Notes: a model not told the origin generated them from the sequence alone. 64,000 nt of DNA from a bacterium (GCA_965219955.1 OZ244799.1:1728001-1792000); one strand, 5' to 3'; counted from the stretch's first letter, positions 43,461 through 55,506 are shown. A program made the numbers and translations.

Positions 43461-43881
43461 CGTGCGGAAACACGCAAAAGAGGCGGCCCCCTTCACGGGA
43501 CCGCCTCCTTGAATCCATCCTGCCCGGAGTTGCCAAACCCCGGGAAACCAGCTATAGAAGCAGCTGGGGGTCGGTTCCGCCCGAAGAGGAAGGAATCGAC
43601 GCGACCAATGCGGGAGCGTTTGATTTATTCCCTCCTACAACCAACATAATATAAGGCTAGCTGGGGGTTACTCATTATTCCCGTCCCAAACCGAGAGGAC
43701 TCAAACTCTGTAGCATGGGCCGGTACAATTTGCTCCCGACGATGTAGAGCAACCAATGAGTAACCCCCAAAGGTCACGCGTCCCTTCCCGGCAACCTGCC
43801 CTTTCCTGTTTCTGACTTGCTTATCAGGCCCGCCCCGGCCCCGGGGGCCAGCCAGCCCCGAGGCCAAAAGCGTCTTGTCCG

Positions 43882-45546
43882 TTACCTGTGCGCTCCGAAC
43901 GCCCCGATGAAGGCGGCGTCTCCTCCAGTCCCGGTCAGCTTGTTAACGTAAAACGTCCCGGCAACAGAGCCCGGGAGTCCAGGCGTATATGAAATTGCTT
44001 GTGTGTCTGCAGCACCATCAACAACCACCCTTGGAGCTTCAACCCTTTTGTCTCTTCTCATTCCAAAAAACTGGCCCTTCCAAGCGCCATTGTAGGCATT
44101 TCCTTCAACCACGCCCGCAGCGGTGCCGCCCGTAAACGCAGCTGTCAGATCATCGGTTAGAGCCTGTTCCTGCAATTCAATGCTCCCGTCAATGCGTATT
44201 CCGCCAGCTGTTATGTTCGTGACGTTACCCCCGATTTTACCCGAGCCCGTTCCACCTGCATCCTGGAACTCGGCCGTGAGCGAAACGTCCGCCTTCAAAA
44301 AACTGGCCTTCCCGTCCGCTAGGTACGCGCCGTTCGCATTCCCTCGATACGTGTAGCTCTTGTCCGTATCATCGGCGAGCACCGTGCTGATCAAATTTAA
44401 CCCTGAAGTCGCCGAACAACTCCTGTCGAGCGAAGTGGAGTCGGTCACATCTGTGGCGCTGCAGAAGTTATGCGTAGCCACAATCGGCTGATTCCCATAC
44501 GCAAAGGCTTGAATCGAAGGGGTGGCGCCTGAGTCATCAAGCCAGATTCCGGCCAGCAAGTAATCGGGGTCGTCTTGATATACGTATCTCTCATCGGCGG
44601 GGGTATCGGGAGTATTGTCTACGAGTTGCCCGGCCGCAATGCCGGCTCTCACCCGGCTGGATACCGCAATATCCGTATAGGCATTGGCGAAGCGGCCATT
44701 ACCGTCTTTCAGGTCGAAACCCTGATGGAGACGTCCGGGGTTAGTGATTCTGCCCGTTTTACTGTGCGACGGAACTGCCGTTCCTTCGACCGTTATCGTA
44801 ACCGCCAGGACTCCTCTGTCTGTATTTGCGGGTATCGGATAAACCGTTCCATCCCCACTCGTATGGTACGGATAAGTGGCCTGGTTGGCGCCTGACGCCG
44901 TCCCGATGTTTCCATTGGGAATGGAAGCATCGGTCAATGGCAGGAGAGCATCGTATACTTTCCTGTTGTCCCTCACATGCTTGATGAGCGAGGACCCGCC
45001 CGTCTGGGCGGCCTCGTCCGCCTCCCGTTGTCTACGAGCTTCCGCAACCGCATTAACGGCGTTCAGGATGGACGTCACAGCCGATTGCGCGGTTATCAGG
45101 TCACCACGCGCCGTCCTCGCGTCATTCAGAGCCCGCTCCGCCTGCGCAGGCGTGGTGGCCACGTTCGCCACGCCGCTCGCGGTTAAGATACCCGCCAGGG
45201 CGTCTTCCGCGGCTGCGACATTCGCGTTCGCGTTTGCTACCTGTGTAGCCGTTGCGTCGTCGTGGGCCCGCACCGCCGCCGCCGCTGAGCGCGCCGCCTG
45301 CACCCGCGTCCGGGCGTCTGTGACGATGTCGTCGAGATCATCCTGCGCTTCGGCGATCAATTCCGCATCCGTCGGTGGCGGATCCGTGCAGTTCGGGTAT
45401 GTCCCGACCTGACCCTGCGGGCATTCCATCACAGGCGTCTCTTCTTCCATGGCGCTGCCACCGCCACCGCCGCCGCAACCGGAGGCAAATGCCGCAATGC
45501 TTACAGCAAATACCACCAAACCCAAATACCTGAGCATTCTCATCAT
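43882..45546 (-). CDS. Surface lipoprotein with TbpB/fHbp-like C-terminal beta-barrel
   Basis: Lipobox ASGC then poly-Gly, Ala-rich helical stalk, YLLAGIWL, YRGNANGAY, WKGQFFG, terminal FIGAFGA. Confidence 0.8.
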   Translation of the reverse strand: MMRMLRYLGLVVFAVSIAAFASGCGGGGGGSAMEEETPVMECPQGQVGTYPNCTDPPPTDAELIAEAQDDLDDIVTDARTRVQAARSAAAAVRAHDDATATQVANANANVAAAEDALAGILTASGVANVATTPAQAERALNDARTARGDLITAQSAVTSILNAVNAVAEARRQREADEAAQTGGSSLIKHVRDNRKVYDALLPLTDASIPNGNIGTASGANQATYPYHTSGDGTVYPIPANTDRGVLAVTITVEGTAVPSHSKTGRITNPGRLHQGFDLKDGNGRFANAYTDIAVSSRVRAGIAAGQLVDNTPDTPADERYVYQDDPDYLLAGIWLDDSGATPSIQAFAYGNQPIVATHNFCSATDVTDSTSLDRSCSATSGLNLISTVLADDTDKSYTYRGNANGAYLADGKASFLKADVSLTAEFQDAGGTGSGKIGGNVTNITAGGIRIDGSIELQEQALTDDLTAAFTGGTAAGVVEGNAYNGAWKGQFFGMRRDKRVEAPRVVVDGAADTQAISYTPGLPGSVAGTFYVNKLTGTGGDAAFIGAFGAHR

Positions 45547-45726
45547 TTGCCCCCTAAGGCTGTCCCCCCTCCTGAAACGGAAGGGGGCGGGCGGTTAAAA
45601 CTTGGTTTCCATGTACCGCTTGCTCGCGCCGGTGCGCCGATGCGTCCTGCTCATTTCATCCCCCGGCCCCGGGCGTCATGCCGACGCCCGGGGTCAAGAG
45701 GTGTGCTGTCTTCCCTGTTACTTCTG

Positions 45727-47430
45727 TTACTCGGCCTTCCACGAACCGAACGCGCCAATCAGGCTCATCTTGCCATCCTGGGTGGACGCGCCGAAGGTGC
45801 CGGCTGCGGTCGTCGGGAACGTGGCTGCTACTACGCTCGCGGACGCGCCTGTCCGGGCGGCTGGACCGTATACCTGGCCTCCATACGTGCCACGGAAACC
45901 GTTTCCGCCGAGAACGCCGTCCGTCATGCCTGAGAACGTTCCTTCAGCAGCGATGTCGCCTCTCATCAGCCCCAGGGTGCCGTCAACAGCCTGGCCGGCG
46001 GCCCTGATGTTCGAAATGCTCCCCGAAATCTTCCCACCTACATTCGTTGCTCCGCCGAAGTCGGCCTCGAGCGTGGCGTCTGCGTCGAAGTACTGAACCA
46101 TTCCGCCCGCGGAGTACAGGCCGTTCGCGACGCCGTTATACGTGGCCGTACCCGAGAGTGCTGGTACAACAGCGAATACCTGGCTGCCGTAAGCGAATGC
46201 ACCTGCCTGGGCGTCTAAATTAGTGGGAGCGGGATCCGGGATGGAGTCTCTGATGGAAGCTTGTACCCACATGCCCCAGGCCAGGTAGTCTCCGTCCACA
46301 TCATCTTCTGTCGTCTTCGCATGCGAGATCTTGTAGCCTGAAACCGTTGTAACCTTGCCGTCTTCATCCACGCTGATGGCGCAACCGGCAGTGACGGCTG
46401 AAGGGCAGTAAATCTCGCCTGACCGGGGCGCGTTGTTATCAGTGGGAACTGCGTTGTAGGAAGCTACGAAGTCGCTCCCGTCATTCGGAACATCCCCTGT
46501 GATAACACTGTTGACGGAAATGTCAGCGTCACCCGCATCCTGTGTGTAAGTATCCTTTTTCGTCGTTGCTTGAATGTCCGTGCTGACGACGAGCTGAGCT
46601 TTTACTTCGTTAGCGGTTACTACGCGCAGCAGATCCTGACCTTCCCAGTTTCCCTTGGTATGGAAGCGTGAAGGTGTTTCACCCTGCAGTAAAGGGTTTC
46701 CAGAGCCATGTTCGAGCGTAAATGTGGAACCGCCCGCCTTGTGCACGACTACTGCCGTGCCTGATGTTCCATTTATCGTAACCTGAGTGTCTGTGCCGCT
46801 CATACCGCCCTGGTTCGTAAAACCATCAGCAAAAGCAGCAGCATTATCTGCGGCATCCGTTATTGCGGCGCCCACGTTTTTCGCATTGTTAACTTCCTTG
46901 GGCACGTCCGTACCGTCCAGCGTGGCATTATCGATGTCGTCGCCGTTGAGCCTCTTGTTCGACAGCATGATGAGCCCGAGGCCAGTCGTGCCGGCCGCAT
47001 CCTCTGCCTTGCCCTGGGCCGTCTCGGCCGCCATCTGGTGTCCCATGGCGTCCGCGGAAGTCGTTGCCGCCTGCGCAGCCGTGTTGGCTTCAGCAGCCAT
47101 TTTCGCGTATCCGTATGCGTTGCTGGCCGCCACGGGGTCCACCGCGCCGCCCACTGCCGCCATCGCCGCCGTAGCCGCCGCTGCCGCTGCGCTCTGCGCG
47201 CCGCTCAGGGCCATCTCTTCGGCAAGATCCGCAGCGGAGGTGCAAGAACCGTCCGCGTTATACCGGCCGCCGTCACCCTCGCACATTTCCTGCGCGGTGG
47301 GTTCCGGCATGGCGGGCGGTTCCTCTTCCACGGCAGCCGATCCGCCGCCGCCGCCGCAACCCGCCAGCGTCAGCGCGAAGGCGGCCGCCAGCATGAATGA
47401 AAAGATTTTGTTGCTGGTGAGTTTCATCAC
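45727..47430 (-). CDS. Surface lipoprotein with TbpB/fHbp-like C-terminal beta-barrel (paralog)
   Basis: Lipobox LAGC then poly-Gly, YLAWGMW, ATYNGVANGLY, YGGQVYG, terminal LIGAFGS; GGAGG RBS. Confidence 0.82.
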   Translation of the reverse strand: MMKLTSNKIFSFMLAAAFALTLAGCGGGGGSAAVEEEPPAMPEPTAQEMCEGDGGRYNADGSCTSAADLAEEMALSGAQSAAAAAATAAMAAVGGAVDPVAASNAYGYAKMAAEANTAAQAATTSADAMGHQMAAETAQGKAEDAAGTTGLGLIMLSNKRLNGDDIDNATLDGTDVPKEVNNAKNVGAAITDAADNAAAFADGFTNQGGMSGTDTQVTINGTSGTAVVVHKAGGSTFTLEHGSGNPLLQGETPSRFHTKGNWEGQDLLRVVTANEVKAQLVVSTDIQATTKKDTYTQDAGDADISVNSVITGDVPNDGSDFVASYNAVPTDNNAPRSGEIYCPSAVTAGCAISVDEDGKVTTVSGYKISHAKTTEDDVDGDYLAWGMWVQASIRDSIPDPAPTNLDAQAGAFAYGSQVFAVVPALSGTATYNGVANGLYSAGGMVQYFDADATLEADFGGATNVGGKISGSISNIRAAGQAVDGTLGLMRGDIAAEGTFSGMTDGVLGGNGFRGTYGGQVYGPAARTGASASVVAATFPTTAAGTFGASTQDGKMSLIGAFGSWKAE

Positions 47431-47649
47431 TTTGAGTCCTCCTAGTCTCGTGACATTAAAGAGCTTTGCAACAGAAAAAACCTGAAGTGTCTGGATTTGA
47501 CCTCCTTTCTTTGACTTTCCGATATTTCTTGTCCTATCCGTTATCGGGCTTCTATCGTTTATCGGGCTTATGCCGTTTCATCGAGCCTGGGGCCTGAGCG
47601 CGCGGCCGCCGGCCCGGACTCCCGCGTCCGGGCCGGTAGCCGGCTTATC

Positions 47650-48175
47650 CACGAGACTGGTGTGGGATTCTTGGCGCTCATCATGATGGTTAGAGTCCTC
47701 CAGCCCCGTGCTATGAAAACTTCCCAGGTTCCAGCGAATCTTTCAGCCTCCTTTTTTCAGGCGCCTCCGGGGGTTCCGCGTTCCCGGAAGCCCCGGCGCC
47801 ACGGCCACGGCTAGCTAAAGAAAGCGCCGGGCCGATCCTTGGATTCGGTTCACGAGGCTGGAGAGGGATTTGTGGCGCGGTGCTTCCTGGGTTGAGTCCT
47901 CTGGCCTCGTGATATCTGCTGCTCACCCGGCTCCCGCCGGGCTTTTCGTCTTTCTTCGGGACCGGAGCCGCCGCTTGTACGAACGGGAGAATCCGGGCCT
48001 TTACCTGATTCGGTTCACGAGACTGGAGAGGGATTTGTGGCGTGGTTCATCATGAGTTGAGTCCTCTAGCCTCGTGATAGTTCATCTTCCGGCTTCCGCC
48101 GGGCCTTACGCTTCACGAGACTGGAGGGGGGATTCGCGGCGTGGTTCGCCTCGGGTTGAGTCCTCTGGCCTCGTG
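47650..48175 (-). repeat. Array of four 61-62 nt imperfect hairpin repeats upstream of the lipoprotein genes
   Basis: Units 47650-47710, 47851-47911, 48016-48076, 48114-48175: CACGAGRCTGG..GGGATTY..GGCG[12-13 nt variable]GTT(A)GAGTCCTCYRGCCYCGTG. Confidence 0.9.
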
Positions 48176-48499
48176 ATGTTTGCTGCTGAAGCCCGGCGTC
48201 TTTCTGGTTTCTGGGTCGTCGTCTTCCGGGCTTCGCCGAGCCGTCTCGGAGAGCGTTGTTCAGCCGCCGGGTTCCCGCCTCATCCGGCCATCGCGGCGTG
48301 ATCCGCGTTGCGTTGAGCGGGCGGCCCTGTAAGCAACTGCTCTCGTGTATTACTCGGCATTTATGATAGTGCGGTAAATATTCCGCTTTTGTCAACCCTT
48401 TAATTGAACTTGCGCGCAACTCTTGTGCAGGCGTCCATCGCGCGAGTATGACCGAACCCGCGCGGGTTATCAAACGGGAGGGGGGAATGGGCGTTTGAG

Positions 48500-49025
48500 G
48501 GGGGTGTTGAAAAGCCCTGACCTGCCCCCGCAAACCGCCAACGCCTCATTCCTCACCCTGAGTAGCCGCCAAAGGCGGCGTATCGAAGGGCGAGGAGAGT
48601 CGAACGCCTCGCGCCGGGTGAGAGCAAACACTCATTCATCAATCGCGTTTGACCTTCGATACGGCGCTTTCGCGCCTACTCAGGATGAGGAGTGTCGGGG
48701 AACGGCGGAGCCTGTCCCGAGCGAAGTCGAGGGAGCCTGTCCCGAGCGAAGTCGAGGGACCGCTACTCAGGATGAGGCGGTGTGGTTTTGTTCGCAATCC
48801 CGTTGCCGTCATTCCGGCGAAAGCCGGAATCCATTTTCGCCTTTGTCTTTGGCCTTTCGCCCGGCCGTCCTCTCTCCCGGCCGGGGAAGATACGGACGTC
48901 GCCATGTATATCCGCCTCATCCGTTCCGGATTCGGGCGCGGCGCTCCCTACCGCGAGTCAGAATCAAATGCGAAAACGAAAGCAAAAATCATAAAATGGA
49001 TTCCGGCTTTCGCCGGAATGACGGC
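48500..49025. repeat. Intergenic repeat cluster (CCTGAGTAGCCGCC..TATCGAAGG, GTCATTCCGGCGAAAGCCGGAATC pair, ~25-bp tandem)
   Basis: Inverted pair at ~48808 and ~48998; unit at ~48556 recurs at ~60505. Confidence 0.8.
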
Positions 49026-49237
49026 GGTGGTCAATAACGAGTGAGGGGGACTTTTTCCACCCCTCCCCCGTCCCGCTCGACCCCATTTTCACGGATTCGT
49101 CATAAACCCCGCCTACCCCCCTTCCCGCCGTTGTTGTAAGATGTCTCTCCCGGCCTTTAGGACGGCGCGGGACTTGTACCCGCATTTGTATGCCGCCGCA
49201 CCGAAGGCCGGGGCTTCATGGATTGGGAGATACCCAG

Positions 49238-50209
49238 ATGGCCTCCCCGCCGGAGCTTCCCGAACGCCTCCTGGTCGCCGTGGGCGGCAACGCGACCCAC
49301 CCGCCCGAGATACGCGGCACGGCCGCCGAACAGGCCGCCATCGCCGCCGCCACGGGCCGCGCGCTGCTCCCGCTCTTGCAGCTAAAAAACGAACTCATCA
49401 TCACGCACGGGAACGGCCCCGTGGTCGGCAAGATCCTCATGCGCCAGGCCGTCTCGAGCGAGCAGGTGACGCCGATGACGCTCGACATCTGCGTCGCCCA
49501 CAGCCAGGGGGGCATCGCCTACCTCCTCATGCAGGCGTTCGAGAACGCGCTCAGGCGCGCGGGCGACCCGCGCCACGTGGTCTGCCTCCTGACGCAGGTG
49601 GAGGTCGACCCGGCGGACCCGGCCTTCGACGCGCCGACCAAGTTCGTGGGCTACACCTACACCGAAGAAGAGGCGAGGCGGTATGAGCGCGAGATGGGCT
49701 GGACTTTCAAGCGAGACGGCGGCCGGGGCTGGCGCCACGTCGTCGCGTCGCCAAAGCCCAAGCACATCGTGGACATCTCGCTCATCGAGACGATCGCCAA
49801 GAGCGGTGCGGTCGTGATAGCGGGCGGCGGCGGGGGCATCCCCGTCGTGAGGGAGGCCGACGGGGCGCGCCGGGGGCTGGCCGCCGTCATCGACAAGGAT
49901 TTGACGTCGGCGCTCATGGCGAACGTGCTGGAGATCAAGACGATGATGATCCTGACCGCCGTGCCCCGGGTGGCCGTCCACTTCGGGACGCCCGAGCAAA
50001 GAGAGCTGACGCGCGTCTCCCTCGACGAGATCAAGAGATACCACGCCCAGGGCCACTTCCCGCCCGGCAGTATGGGCCCCAAGATAGAGGCGGCGATCCG
50101 CTTCCTCGAGGGCGGCGGCGAGCGGGTGCACATCGCAGCACTCGAGGACGCCGTCCCCGCCCTGAGGGGGGACGCGGGGACGTGTGTGTATAGGGTCAAA
50201 CGCGATTGA
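49238..50209 (+). CDS. arcC: Carbamate kinase
   Basis: VAVGGNA, ITHGNGPVVG, PTKFVG, GGGGGIPV, AVIDKDL, GSMGPKIEAA. Confidence 0.94.
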   Translation: MASPPELPERLLVAVGGNATHPPEIRGTAAEQAAIAAATGRALLPLLQLKNELIITHGNGPVVGKILMRQAVSSEQVTPMTLDICVAHSQGGIAYLLMQAFENALRRAGDPRHVVCLLTQVEVDPADPAFDAPTKFVGYTYTEEEARRYEREMGWTFKRDGGRGWRHVVASPKPKHIVDISLIETIAKSGAVVIAGGGGGIPVVREADGARRGLAAVIDKDLTSALMANVLEIKTMMILTAVPRVAVHFGTPEQRELTRVSLDEIKRYHAQGHFPPGSMGPKIEAAIRFLEGGGERVHIAALEDAVPALRGDAGTCVYRVKRD

Positions 50210-50754: not shown

Positions 50755-51858
50755 ATGCAGGCAGACCTGTTCCGCGTGGCGATGGACTCGCCCGACGACA
50801 TCTCCGGCGTGGCCGCTCTCATCGAGGGGGGCGAATGCCGGGCGGAGGACGTCGTCGGCATCATGGGCAAGACCGAGGGGAACGGCTGCGTGAACGATTT
50901 CTCGCGCGGGTTCAGCAACTTCGTCCTGCTCGATTATTTCTCGCGCGCGATGGGCAAGAGCCGCGAGGAGGTGGAGGCGCAGATCGCCCTCATCATGTCC
51001 GGCGGCACGGAAGGCGTCATGTGCCCGCATTTTTCGGTGTTCACGAAGTCCGAGAACGGCGCGGGCGACGGGCGCGCCAAGCGCCTCGCCATCGCTTCGG
51101 GCCACACGGCGGATTTTTTTCCTGAGGAGATGGGCCGGATGGCGCAGGTGCGCGCGACGGCGGACCTCGTAAGAAGGCTGATGGAAGAGGCGCAGATCGA
51201 GAGCGCGGCGGACCTCCACTTCGTCCAGGTGAAGTGCCCGCTCCTGACGGGCGATCGCATGGCGGACGCCTTGGGGCGCGGGAAGAGCGTCTGCACGGAG
51301 GACACGTATAAATCGATGGGCTACTCGCGCGGGGCGTCTGCGCTGGGGGTGGCCCTGGCGGCGGGCGAGGTGGCCGAAAGCGCGCTTAGCGACGAGGTGA
51401 TTTGTAAGGACTGGTCGCTCCAGTCGGGCGTCGCCTCGACCTCGGCGGGCATCGAGCTCATGTGCAACGAGGCGATGGTGATCGGCAACAGCGCGGCCTG
51501 GGGCGGGGACCTCGTCGTCGGCCACAGCGTCATGGAGGACGCCATCGACAGGGACGCGGTGAGAGACGCCATCGTGAACGCAGGGATAGCGTTCGAGTGG
51601 TCGCTGGCGCCGGCGCAGCGCGCGCGCGTCGTGAACGTGTTCGCCAAGTGCGAGGCCTCCCCCGACGGGCTGGTGCGCGGGCGGCGGCACACGATGCTCG
51701 ACGACTCGGACATCAACAACACGCGCCACGCCCGCTCGGTCGTGAACGCGGTGGTGTCTTCGGTCGTCGGCGACACGATGACCTACGTCTCGGGCGGCGC
51801 CGAGCACCAGGGCCCCCCCGGCGGCGGCCCCGTCGCGGCGGTCGTACGGGCGGGGTAG
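50755..51858 (+). CDS. atzD: Cyanuric acid hydrolase / barbiturase family ring-opening amidohydrolase
   Basis: GKTEGNGCVNDFSRG, MSGGTEG, QVKCPLLT, YSRGASALG, STSAG, YVSGGAEHQGP; the Arg in SRGASALG favours cyanuric acid hydrolase. Confidence 0.9.
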   Translation: MQADLFRVAMDSPDDISGVAALIEGGECRAEDVVGIMGKTEGNGCVNDFSRGFSNFVLLDYFSRAMGKSREEVEAQIALIMSGGTEGVMCPHFSVFTKSENGAGDGRAKRLAIASGHTADFFPEEMGRMAQVRATADLVRRLMEEAQIESAADLHFVQVKCPLLTGDRMADALGRGKSVCTEDTYKSMGYSRGASALGVALAAGEVAESALSDEVICKDWSLQSGVASTSAGIELMCNEAMVIGNSAAWGGDLVVGHSVMEDAIDRDAVRDAIVNAGIAFEWSLAPAQRARVVNVFAKCEASPDGLVRGRRHTMLDDSDINNTRHARSVVNAVVSSVVGDTMTYVSGGAEHQGPPGGGPVAAVVRAG

Positions 51859-53891: not shown

Positions 53892-55506
53892 CAGCCTGTC
53901 GGGCTTTGGCCTGCCAAGGAGTTCGAAGCACCAATCGTGGGAGTGATTTTCGGGGTTCTTCTCGGTAATCGATTCTTGTTGGCCGGCGATTCGGTGTCAG
54001 GAGCCATGATCGGCCCTCACAGGCCCGGTGGGAGTCATAGCGGCCGGCAACAGGCCACGGGACGAGGGCGTTTATCCTCCGATCACGCCGACTTCAGGTT
54101 GTGCAGACGCTTGCAGTTATAAGCCAGCATCACCAGGACCCACTCGCCCTGCACCTTCTCGAGACCGCGCAAGAGGAACTGCCGGAAGCCCATCGCCTGC
54201 TTGACGATGCCGAACACCGGCTCCACCGTCTGCCGCCGCAGGCGATAACGGGCGCGCTCTTCCGGCTTCGCCATCTTCGCGCGCATCGCCGCAATCCACT
54301 CCGCTCGAACTTCCGGACCTGGCCGGGAAGCCACCGGTGGCCGGAAGTCGTGCCGACGGCGCCCCCCTTCGGCTTGCGTGGCCACCAGAACCTCGACGCC
54401 CCGTCTCTCGAGTTCTTCCACTTCGCTGCCCGTCGCGTAGCCGCTGTCCGCCAACACACGCGCCGGCGCGGCAACCGAAGGCGGAATCGCCTCCACGTCC
54501 GCCACCAGTTCCCCGCGGTCGCTCGCGTTGTTGCTCACACGCGCTCCCAGCACCAACTGGCTGCCTTCGGCATCCACCACCGCCTGCGCGTTGTACGCCT
54601 GGCGATACTCGTGACGCTTGCTCTTGCGCATCAAGGCGCTGTCCCCATCCGTCAGGTTGATCTGCCGCCCCTCTTCGGGCTTCTCCCGAGGGGGCTTGAT
54701 GCGCGGACCCTTCCTCCGACCTGAACGGCGCTCCCGAGACGCCGCCTTGCGTTCATATTCCGCCCGACCCGCCTCGGCCGACCTCTTCGCGCGGCGCTCC
54801 AGTTCCGCGCACGCCGCATCCAGCTTCGACTTCAACTCCTCGCGACGCGCCAACTCCTCCGGCAGCGCCTGCGGATCCCCTACCTCCTGCGCATCTTCGC
54901 TCTCCGCACGCTCCAGCAACTCCTCGACCTCTCCGCGCAATTGAGAGCCCAACGCCTGCGCACGGTCATACCGGACGTTGTTGTGCTTGCTCGCGTTCGC
55001 GTCCACCTTCGTCCCGTCCACGCTCACCGTCCCGACCCGCAACAACTTCAACTCCTTCGCCAGCAGCAAAACCTGCTCGAACGTCTCCGCTATCGCCTCG
55101 AAGTTATCGCGACGGAACGCGCAGATCGTGTCGTGGTCCGGGTGTGTGTTCGACGCCACGTATCGAACCCCGATATCCCGGTACGTCGCGCGCTCGATCC
55201 GGCGCGAACCGAATATCCCGTTCGCGTAGCAGTAAATCAGCAGCGCCAGCATCATCCGGGGATGGTACTGCGCTGAACCCGTGCCGCGCTCGTTCACGCG
55301 GAATGACCCCAGAGGCACCCGTTCCACCGCCTCCACTACGAAGTGCGCCAGATCGTCCTCCGGCAACCACTCCCGCATGTCCACAGGAAGAAGATACAAC
55401 TGCGACTGATTACAATCTACAAACTTCGCCACCCCAATCCCCTCCCTTAAAAATACCTCGCGAGAACGACATATTATAAAAGGTAGGGCCTAAGTCCGAC
55501 AGGCTG
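53892..55506 (-). mobile_element. IS1182 family insertion sequence
   Basis: 20-bp TIRs CAGCCTGTCGGRCTTWGGCC with 2 mismatches, TTAG on both sides. Confidence 0.9.
54083..55432 (-). CDS. IS1182 family transposase
   Basis: YHPRMMLALLIY, PDHDTICAFR, VDGTKVDANAS, YNAQ, ADSGY, VEPVFGIVK. Confidence 0.95.
   Translation of the reverse strand: MAKFVDCNQSQLYLLPVDMREWLPEDDLAHFVVEAVERVPLGSFRVNERGTGSAQYHPRMMLALLIYCYANGIFGSRRIERATYRDIGVRYVASNTHPDHDTICAFRRDNFEAIAETFEQVLLLAKELKLLRVGTVSVDGTKVDANASKHNNVRYDRAQALGSQLRGEVEELLERAESEDAQEVGDPQALPEELARREELKSKLDAACAELERRAKRSAEAGRAEYERKAASRERRSGRRKGPRIKPPREKPEEGRQINLTDGDSALMRKSKRHEYRQAYNAQAVVDAEGSQLVLGARVSNNASDRGELVADVEAIPPSVAAPARVLADSGYATGSEVEELERRGVEVLVATQAEGGRRRHDFRPPVASRPGPEVRAEWIAAMRAKMAKPEERARYRLRRQTVEPVFGIVKQAMGFRQFLLRGLEKVQGEWVLVMLAYNCKRLHNLKSA

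Follow-up and report, generated by a model that had tools for sequence, protein, structure and literature searches.

The locus and its parts

The present analysis concerns an array of four hairpin-forming units that lies ahead of a surface-lipoprotein gene in a window of bacterial DNA of 64,000 nucleotides (nt; OZ244799.1, 1728001-1792000); all positions given below are counted from the first letter of this window. The units, of 61-63 nt each, lie on the minus strand, like the gene, at 48176-47649. This leader element is genuine, conserved and expressed, and no family described so far matches it.

With the flanking T and A (or G) included, the units span 48176-48113, 48077-48015, 47912-47850 and 47710-47649. 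Each begins with a 5′ arm of the pattern CACGRGRCYRGAGGACTC, which had four exact matches on the minus strand (48175-48158, 48076-48059, 47911-47894 and 47710-47693) versus 0.09 expected; four matches were reached in none of 100 shuffled sequences. Each unit ends with a 3′ arm CCAG(T/C)CTCGTG (48124-48113, 48026-48015, 47861-47850 and 47660-47649). A repeat search returned them as one four-copy family, with start-to-start spacings of 201, 165 and 99 nt. The gaps between the units (36, 103 and 140 nt) are structured and kept between species, and the centres of the units differ from one another. When folded on the gene strand, the units gave energies of -19.4 to -25.5 kcal/mol, with z-scores of -2.0 to -4.3 against shuffled sequences.

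The initiation region of the gene itself contains CACGAGACTAGGAGGACTC (47452-47434), followed by GTGATG at 47430. An earlier note on this DNA had stated that the units start like this region, and the likeness was confirmed: it extends over about 40 nt and takes in the arm, the context of the Shine-Dalgarno (SD) sequence and a doubled start codon, which is ATGATG in the units and GTGATG in the gene. So, each unit can be described as a copy of the gene's initiation region to which a 3′ arm has been added. The four units, their arms, the initiation region and two small GNRA-capped hairpins were all found where that note had placed them. Its count of units and its description of the arms hold, while the 'variable centre' it attributed to them does not vary freely, as in most units it contains a start codon in frame with a stop inside the 3′ arm.

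The features of the locus, all on the minus strand, are the following, from the promoter to the gene:

48366-48395: putative sigma-70-type promoter, conserved, TTGACA-18 nt-CACTAT, assigned by pattern match (-35 at 48395-48390, -10 at 48371-48366)
48291-48317: degenerate partial unit-like remnant, centre only, without arms, 81% identical to the centre of unit 1
48113-48176: unit 1 ('type-1'), with intact arms, no start codon, an extra C and an inner GGCG/CGCC hairpin; minimum free energy (MFE) -25.5 kcal/mol, z -4.29
48089-48102: spacer hairpin CCGGC-GGAA-GCCGG, with a GNRA loop on the gene strand
48015-48077: unit 2, made of arm, GAGGA, ATGATG and a mini-ORF (short open reading frame, ORF) coding for MMNHATNPSPVS (48053-48015), with its TGA stop within the 3′ arm; MFE -19.4 kcal/mol, z -3.5
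47927-47940: spacer hairpin CCGGC-GGGA-GCCGG, with a GNRA loop; terminator-like, with a T-run, if read on the plus strand
47850-47912: unit 3, with intact arms, its start codon lost here (AAG); MFE -22.1 kcal/mol, z -3.5
47746-47752: orphan SD AAGGAGG, with no start codon in reach
47649-47710: unit 4 ('last type'), with an arm ending in TGG instead of TGA; ORF of 38 codons (47684-47568)
47603-47642: large G+C-rich hairpin after the last unit, an inverted repeat with 17-nt arms (88% complementary), predicted by alifold
47500-47506: second orphan SD GAAAGGAGGTCAAATCC, homologous to the orphan SD of paralog leaders
47425-47453: the gene's own initiation region, TCACGAGACTAGGAGGACTC followed by AAA and GTGATG, identical in all 10 aligned loci
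47342-47430: signal peptide, lipobox (LAGC) and glycine run, the end of the conserved 'front end'; DNA 85-96% identical between genomes
45727-47341: variable mature lipoprotein ('cargo'), with a C-terminal domain in common with the neighbour gene 43882-45546

The orthologs of unit 1 (at loci L002, L006, L008, L009 and L132) likewise lack the ORF. The ortholog of unit 3 at L002 still has its start codon and codes for MHRATNPSPAS followed by a stop. As the arm of unit 4 ends in TGG and not in TGA, its ORF continues through the next hairpin, at 47603-47642. This hairpin is conserved and, in the alignment, L006 and L008 show G.U wobbles that pair on the gene strand only. The equivalents of the spacer hairpins in the relatives, as read from the printed spacers, all have GNRA loops (GGAA, GGGA, GCGA, GAGA or GAAA). 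A second promoter-like site, TTGATA-17-CATACT, lies at 48473-48445 of the minus strand, about 80 nt upstream of the conserved promoter, and can be recognised by eye in most relatives.

Uniqueness and distribution of the array

The genome searched is one closed contig of 4,283,615 bases with 60.9% G+C. An nhmmer profile built from the four units recovered these same four copies (E 7e-19 to 1.6e-15) and no others in the genome, the next-best matches having E values of 0.93, 1.6 and 4.5. The Rfam 15 covariance models, run with E values up to 10 on positions 46500-49500, gave four chance-level matches, none of them on the units. At the gathering threshold, the sole Rfam match in the whole window was a PyrR site far from the array (RF00515, 6063-6172, minus strand; 55.7 bits versus a gathering score of 54), with nothing on the units.

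Among relatives, when a 1-kb region was used in a BLAST search, 11 of the 22 other genomes in the genus showed the locus, versus none of 18 outside it. A covariance model of the unit found the array in 12 of 51 genomes of a phylum sample, with none of the 28 genomes outside the genus giving a match. So, an array of two to four units is conserved in 12 of the 23 species of one genus. The matches of this model in the relatives were all at the array locus, save three weak single ones in genome G014. When the pattern was scanned in one genome per species, at least 118 stretches were found, of which at least 10 had full units (two to four each); the other 108 of the 118 listed were single chance matches or belonged to one Paenibacillus locus. 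The latter, with two matches to the pattern, is a repeated coding sequence and not a unit. A metagenome scan with a 20-mer of the gene's initiation region added two further contigs.

The array is linked to a single gene: the 12 of the 23 genomes of the genus that carry it are precisely those with the 20-mer TCACGAGACTAGGAGGACTC, each of them having exactly one copy. The initiation region is 100% identical in nine of nine relatives, while the spacers are 60-76% identical. The layout was the same in all loci examined: the promoter, about 210 nt, two to four units, 155-200 nt and the gene's initiation region, the leader from the promoter to the lipoprotein gene measuring 614-965 nt. In L009, a relative with four units, the identity to the window was 94-96% in the arms, 73% in the centres and 66% in the spacers. 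The units form three classes (first, middle and last), which hold their order across genomes.

These results bear on the kind of element involved. A dispersed repeat (repetitive extragenic palindrome (REP), miniature inverted-repeat transposable element (MITE), Correia- or ERIC-like element, or insertion-sequence (IS) ends) was rejected on the basis of four copies at one locus in 4.28 Mb, with one locus per relative. A CRISPR was rejected on its anatomy, given the uneven and structured gaps conserved between species and the differing centres of the repeats; the searches were not aimed at cas genes in particular. Cassettes of the attC/integron type were also rejected, as spacers of 36-140 nt leave no room for their ORFs, and the Pfam scans of the neighbouring genes showed no integrase, though no search was aimed at IntI. 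The earlier note had been unable to match the units to a riboswitch, CRISPR, attC or REP family, in agreement with the empty Rfam result, the single locus and the dissimilar anatomy. It had also considered that the units might be scattered over the genome or match an Rfam family; they are confined to one locus and belong to none.

Short open reading frames within the units

In the first ten loci, 27 of 33 units had an ATG 8-14 nt past GAGGA. When 14 loci were taken (44 units, 35 of them distinct), 29 of the 35 distinct units had an ATG that shares its frame with the codon closing the arm. In the middle units, this end codon is TGA (TAA once) and the products have 11-12 residues, with the form M-x-H-A-x-N/K-P-S/P-P-V-S. 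In the last units, it is TGG at all the array loci but that of G014, and the frame continues through the next hairpin.

The retention of start, frame and stop is also apparent in the way the units have changed. Where one ATG of the ATGATG pair was lost, the other one was kept (L130 unit 1 and L132 unit 3). The insertions and deletions in ORF-bearing units sit upstream of the ATG (+1 in L131, -1 in L008 unit 3 and L009 unit 4), and only units that lack an intact ORF have any within the ORF stretch (L001 unit 1, L008 unit 1 and L005 unit 2). In unit 2 of G014, the most divergent genome, TGA has changed to TAA, so that the stop is kept and a base pair is broken.

Another observation worth noting is that G014 also has three single, more diverged units (L165, L166 and L167) directly upstream of other lipoprotein genes. 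The two that precede intact genes show GAGGACTC and a GTG start and keep a 12-codon ORF. The third (L167) precedes a broken lipoprotein gene, which has lost its signal-peptide frame, and there the unit shows GAGAACTC and ACG, with the SD and the start lost. The single-unit form was sought outside G014 and none was found. The features looked for in a leader peptide, that is, a short ORF with an SD and a start and with conserved frame and length, are thus present in those 29 distinct units and, with GTG as start, in the G014 singles.

The ORF of the last unit (47684-47568, minus strand) reads ..NPTPVSWISRLPARTRESGPAAARSGP.. and its frame is open through the big hairpin in all ten aligned genomes. 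This product (..TPVSWISR..GP..) may resemble the SecM arrest peptide.

Structure and pairing of the RNA

In the unit hairpin, 90.1% of the cells were paired, versus 40-49% when the partners were slid. The units are the C-rich, G-poor islands of the leader, with C/G ratios of 1.7-2.0.

Concerning the gene's own arm, it had no strong partner in the first 400 nt of the coding sequence (-11.8 kcal/mol), the upstream 3′ arms being its sole strong partners (-27.4 kcal/mol). The gene's arm gives A-U where the units' own arms give a conserved G.U, so the duplex of a 3′ arm with the gene was at least as stable as its duplex with its own arm in 25 of 33 units. In the MFE structure of the window leader, the 3′ half of unit 4 pairs with the initiation region of the gene. 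The earlier note had proposed that each 3′ arm could pair either with its own 5′ arm or with the arm upstream of the gene, and the duplexes predicted for the two pairings are near-equal in energy, with covariation backing neither. An RNA thermometer (ROSE or fourU) was rejected, as there was no local partner for the gene's arm and no match in Rfam.

Strand and transcription

A promoter TTGACA-N17-19-CAYTAT lies about 210 nt before the first unit in 10 of 10 aligned loci and in 10 of 10 further loci examined, its identity to the window being 83-97% in nine relatives. Between the promoter and the gene there was no terminator-like site on the gene strand; all three sites found in 47300-48700 are on the plus strand. 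The promoter, the lack of a terminator, the GNRA loops of the spacers and the start/frame/stop pattern constitute indirect evidence, read from the sequence, in favour of the gene strand.

Transcription was examined in four metatranscriptome runs labelled sponge or coral, from three studies, whose contigs were placed on 43800-49300. The array, the leader and the start of the gene are all present in these RNA libraries. A contig of 647 nt from run X1 covers 47653-48304, one of 557 nt from X3 covers 47746-48297, and contigs from X1 and X2 bridge the initiation region (47315-47607 and 47347-47609). One contig, from a related strain, joins 47671 to 48015 and skips 343 nt between two units, which corresponds to a form with fewer units. 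The contigs of X4, from the third study, match 47342-47460 only and then continue with unlike letters, so the same front end also occurs with another body. Two runs of a single study gave contigs that end at 48297 and 48304, one end carrying an adapter; this is a weak hint of an RNA end rather than a mapped start. The RNA cover was almost nil over the coding body (about 45800-47300) versus 27-140 over the leader; no inference was drawn from this, as contig depth is unfit for ranking and the divergence of the cargo may explain it.

The lipoprotein gene and its exchangeable body

The window lipoprotein contains the lipobox LAGC and had no match in a sequence search of Pfam, NCBIfam or PDB. It belongs to a large family, which has 17 matches in this genome and is represented in 18 of 23 genomes of the genus, the array being on one copy per genome. 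In the family, 4 of 21 members match PF01298 (best E 9.1e-5), two match FHBP_C, and a profile comparison with hemophilin gave a weak E value of 0.25. The label 'TbpB-like' used by the earlier note is thus at most tentative: it has weak support from those four members, and the window's own protein matches nothing.

When the genomes carrying L001-L010 and L129-L131 were compared, the leaders were 91-96% identical, while the mature proteins were only 24-42% identical. The identities for five pairs of loci were:

L001/L002: last 260 nt of leader 91%, signal-peptide DNA 96%, mature protein 42%
L004/L129: last 260 nt of leader 91%, signal-peptide DNA 85%, mature protein 26%
L005/L007: last 260 nt of leader 92%, signal-peptide DNA 90%, mature protein 37%
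L006/L008: last 260 nt of leader 92%, signal-peptide DNA 92%, mature protein 26%
L008/L009: last 260 nt of leader 96%, signal-peptide DNA 88%, mature protein 24%

In genome G011, the best match to the window protein (66%) is at another locus, the array-linked gene being 52% identical. The identity breaks directly after the lipobox and the glycine run, at about 47342. So, the promoter, the array, the initiation region and the signal peptide form a conserved front end, behind which the body has been replaced by recombination. The array-linked gene behaves like an expression site with exchangeable cargo. The earlier note had conceived of the units as recombination sites that swap leaders or lipoprotein cassettes; a swap of cargo between close relatives did occur, but with its breakpoint near 47342 instead of at the units.

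The neighbour lipoprotein gene (43882-45546, minus strand), in tandem with the one under study, has only a C-terminal domain of about 150 residues in common with it (33% identity), and shows an ordinary start region without the arm.

The leaders of the paralogs were inspected at four starts (G000 C1: 4270387, 1631010, 2359257 and 3302457) and at further loci (L133-L140). They are related to the leader of the array but simpler: the SD context is AGGAGGACTCA, and besides it there are an orphan SD (GAAAGGAGGTTAATC) and a pyrimidine element, AAUCCC. The orphan SD is paired with this element in two of the four folds (p1631 and p3302). The real SD is mostly open, with 3-5 of 7 positions paired across the four folds. 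The pairing of the orphan SD with the pyrimidine element may be a family-wide regulatory hairpin.

Proposed mechanism

The reading that we prefer, tentatively and at somewhat short of an even chance, is that the units are tandem, self-closing decoy-initiation sites with mini-ORFs, which gate the output of the leader by coupling of ribosomes against Rho, by exchange of arms or by both. The leader RNA would be read on the gene strand from the conserved promoter into one lipoprotein gene, and would act in cis. Each unit would be a self-closing decoy with the same arm (CACGAGRC), SD context (GAGGACTCAA) and doubled start codon as the gene, and with a mini-ORF of 11-12 codons, the proline-rich, C-rich last codons and stop of which would constitute the 3′ arm that folds back on the arm and the SD. 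A ribosome could load on a unit only during its synthesis or when it is opened; otherwise, the hairpin would close. Two to four such modules in series would gate how much full-length, translatable mRNA reaches the gene. In one option, ribosomes would be kept coupled to the polymerase over the C-rich, G-poor stretches, in a genome that encodes Rho; in the other, free 3′ arms would pair with the gene's own arm and SD. Rho and RNase E/G are both encoded in this genome, and the C-terminal domain of RNase J was not detected in it. Translation of the mini-ORFs, an output through Rho or through arm exchange, and any signal that is sensed are all our inference.

The idea of the earlier note that this is a leader controlling the translation of a surface protein fits with the promoter, the lack of a terminator, the linkage to the 20-mer, the RNA contigs and the partners found for the 3′ arms. 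In these terms, the array probably controls the amount of an exchangeable outer protein in a sponge- and coral-associated bacterium.

Several observations weigh against the decoy-initiation reading. First, the ORF is absent from 6 of the 35 distinct units, mainly of the 'first' type, in spite of perfect arms, so a unit can persist in an untranslatable form. Second, the codons of the loop vary freely by eye (N/K/Q/H/R; T/E/A/V; N/K/R), changing the amino acid, so the peptide itself is not conserved. For these two reasons, conservation is taken to concern initiation and translation as such, or else the imitation of an initiation site, rather than the peptide. Third, initiation should be disfavoured by hairpins of such stability (-19 to -25 kcal/mol), in which part of the SD is covered. 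Fourth, the covariation for which the earlier note had looked to a covariance model of the unit was not significant: shuffled alignments matched the observed scores, and both sides had changed in one pair only (GC, GU, AU). The arms barely vary, so the hairpin is backed only by complementarity and conservation. Fifth, in the last units the duplex with the gene beat the local duplex in only 4 of 10 cases. Sixth, although 290 of 309 outer-stem cells were paired on the gene strand versus 257 of 309 on the opposite one when wobble pairs were counted, the difference was driven by one conserved G.U, without which the strands tie (388 versus 389 paired cells), so this strand test is not decisive. Seventh, the RNA libraries consist of contigs, which carry no strand, whose ends are not transcript ends and which cannot prove a single transcript.

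Alternative explanations

A pure RNA switch without translation is possible but rather unlikely. Here, the decoy SDs would hold the 3′ arms, which are pyrimidine-rich anti-SD sequences, until a signal (temperature, a protein or a small RNA) frees them to mask the arm and SD of the gene, the start codons being mimicry only. Much of the pairing evidence suits this explanation: the gene's arm finds strong pairing only with the 3′ arms upstream of it, the gene duplex equals or exceeds the local one in stability in most units, the MFE structure shows long-range pairing, and the ORF-less units retain their arms. The paralog folds p1631 and p3302 provide SD:anti-SD hairpins that have no ORF. Arms that are frozen and do not covary would also be expected if every 3′ arm must fit several 5′ arms. 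On the other hand, the switch leaves unexplained the retention of start, frame and stop, including a change from TGA to TAA that costs a pair, and the fact that, in G014, SD and start were lost only where the gene that follows is broken. Besides, the local hairpins form first in transcription.

A more elaborate scheme, which we consider improbable, is a register-shifting relay, in which all the 5′ arms, that of the gene included, and all the 3′ arms would be interchangeable, and which would work as a multi-stage kinetic check of ribosome availability. In a 'local' register, each unit would be closed on itself and the ribosome site of the gene would be open; in a 'shifted' register, each 3′ arm would pair with the next 5′ arm downstream, the last one closing the site of the gene. 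The register would depend on whether the first decoy site captures a ribosome while the RNA is being transcribed, and this state would be passed down the chain. Such a device would be a portable front end, regulating whatever lipoprotein body recombination puts behind it.

Little probability is given to the possibility that cleavage or termination releases the array from the mRNA as a stable RNA sponge, derived from the leader, for a protein or RNA factor that recognises the gene's initiation region. The mimicry of about 40 nt by each unit would suit a sponge, and so would the RNA contigs of 557-647 nt that cover just the array, with the adapter at the contig end 48297 as a weak hint; nevertheless, contig ends are not transcript ends. 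As the motif occurs once per genome, the sponge would serve a single target on the same molecule, which argues against it. No RNA complementary to the units was found elsewhere in the genome by nhmmer on both strands. CsrA (PF02599) had no match in the closed genome, while the same search matched 3 of 14 control genomes, so a CsrA sponge of the CsrB/RsmZ type was rejected. The units may act as the 'decoy RNA' of the earlier note, but the best-known protein partner of such an RNA, CsrA, is not encoded.

A similarly low probability corresponds to the units being remnants of duplication, kept alike by gene conversion with the initiation region of the gene and with little or no function of their own. 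The units clearly derive from that region, their number varies from two to four, there is an RNA contig of a related strain that skips 343 nt between units, and covariation is lacking. Against mere remnants, the array has been kept in 12 species while the spacers have fallen to 60-76% identity; the 3′ arm, absent from the gene's region, is as conserved as the 5′ arm; the unit classes keep their order; and the G014 singles decay only beside the broken gene.

It is very improbable that the units are repeats acting at the DNA level, in recombination or phase variation, to switch the lipoprotein on and off or to exchange cassettes. The cargo differs between close relatives, unit number varies and a unit-to-unit deletion form exists, as such repeats would predict. 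But the swap has its boundary near 47342, beyond both signal peptide and lipobox, instead of at the units; each paralog is a complete gene that has a start of its own, unlike a silent cassette; the placed RNA contigs include no inverted form over the units; and the Pfam scans of the neighbours showed no recombinase gene beside the locus, the nearest transposase being at 54083-55432.

Finally, tandem small RNAs of the plus strand, each with an anti-SD stretch complementary to the ribosome-binding region of the gene followed by a hairpin and a T-run, are unlikely, with a minimal probability: the units fold well on that strand (-23 to -34.5 kcal/mol), with terminator-like sites after unit 3 (47926-47941 plus T-run) and unit 1 and about 20 nt of complementarity, but clear T-runs, as read from the printed spacers, are limited to the window, L002 and L004, the alignment shows no conservation of the single promoter-like site of that strand (47497-47526), the GNRA loops and the start/frame/stop pattern belong to the gene strand, and the conserved promoter faces the other way.

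Comparison with known regulatory systems

As decoy-initiation sites with mini-ORFs, the units would seem to work most like leader-peptide attenuators and anti-SD switches. Leader-peptide attenuators include translational attenuation of the ermC type and Rho-dependent leaders of the mgtL type, with short proline-containing ORFs. Common to these systems and the array are a short leader ORF with its own SD, alternative pairings (predicted ones, for the array) of which one involves the SD of the main gene, proline codons (PSP/PPP) near the end of the ORF, C-rich stretches and a Rho encoded in the genome. Unlike them, the array has two to four near-identical modules in series, each copying the initiation region of the main gene; the SD of each upstream ORF (uORF) lies within a hairpin closed by the last codons of the same uORF; no intrinsic terminator follows; and the array is known from sequence alone.

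CsrB and RsmZ are multi-hairpin sponges for CsrA, and the array has in common with them repeated hairpins with a GGA-containing SD mimic. However, this genome has no CsrA gene, the GGA of the array is at the edge of the stem and not in the loop, and the array lies in cis on the only mRNA that has the mimicked site. Mycoplasma expression sites of the vsa/vsp type produce variable surface lipoproteins with a conserved 5′ end and an exchangeable body. The present locus resembles them in its many paralogs and in combining a mature lipoprotein that differs sharply with conservation from the promoter, through leader and start, to the signal peptide. It differs in that the other family members are complete genes with their own starts, the swapping is seen between species, and no site-specific recombinase or site was identified. 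The GCN4 leader of yeast has four uORFs and works by eukaryotic scanning and reinitiation. There, as is proposed for the array, the expression of the main ORF is set by a succession of short uORFs along an extended leader, but GCN4 has neither an SD nor hairpin mimicry, and there is no homology.

Control by a uORF and its ribosome-binding site (uRBS) has been reported in Sinorhizobium meliloti, and EF-P-dependent coupling of transcription and translation has also been reported. In the icaR mRNA of Staphylococcus aureus, a UCCCCUG motif of the 3′ untranslated region is reported to pair at long range with the SD of the same mRNA. Similarly, a distant pyrimidine-rich element of the array leader can pair with the SD of its own mRNA, the 3′ arms containing CCCUCUCC being about 200 to 700 nt upstream. 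In contrast to icaR as described, the anti-SDs of the array are upstream and multiple, each is normally held by a local decoy SD, and the pairing adds an arm of 8-11 nt outside the SD. STAB-SD, described as a 5′ stabiliser of the cry3A mRNA of Bacillus thuringiensis, is reported to block the 5′-3′ exonuclease RNase J1. The array leader likewise has SD-like sequences that do not start the main protein, two orphan SDs (47752 and 47506) being present besides the units. Compared with STAB-SD as it is reported, the RNase J C-terminal domain was not found here, and the units have start codons, ORFs and partial base pairing. A full-text literature search found no bacterial example of such a tandem array of initiation-region copies.

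Textbooks describe leaders that have a single short ORF or a single anti-SD hairpin; serial copies of the initiation region of a gene, closed by the codons of their own mini-ORFs, are something different. If the proposal is true, translation-initiation capacity would be sampled several times along one leader. The combination of the front end with an exchanged surface lipoprotein ties the array to the way in which sponge- and coral-associated symbionts vary their host-facing display. The element is known from 12 species of one uncultured genus, its mechanism being one that we only infer, and it is short, self-contained and easily moved into reporter systems.

Surroundings of the locus

Just upstream of the array, on the plus strand at 48547-49025, there are MITE-like nested inverted repeats, a feature separate from the array. 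They comprise 28-nt arms (48547/48667), 56-nt arms (48805/48970) and a perfect 25-nt tandem duplication (48707-48756). The RNA contigs of this region are multi-placed, with a summed depth of up to 2854, and many joints skip about 163 nt between 48833 and 48997. This suggests that the region 48547-49025 is a multi-copy element common to several organisms. A few kb from the locus there are also a ring-opening amidohydrolase of the AtzD/TrzD family (50755-51858, plus strand; E 2.7e-147) and a DDE transposase (54083-55432, minus strand).

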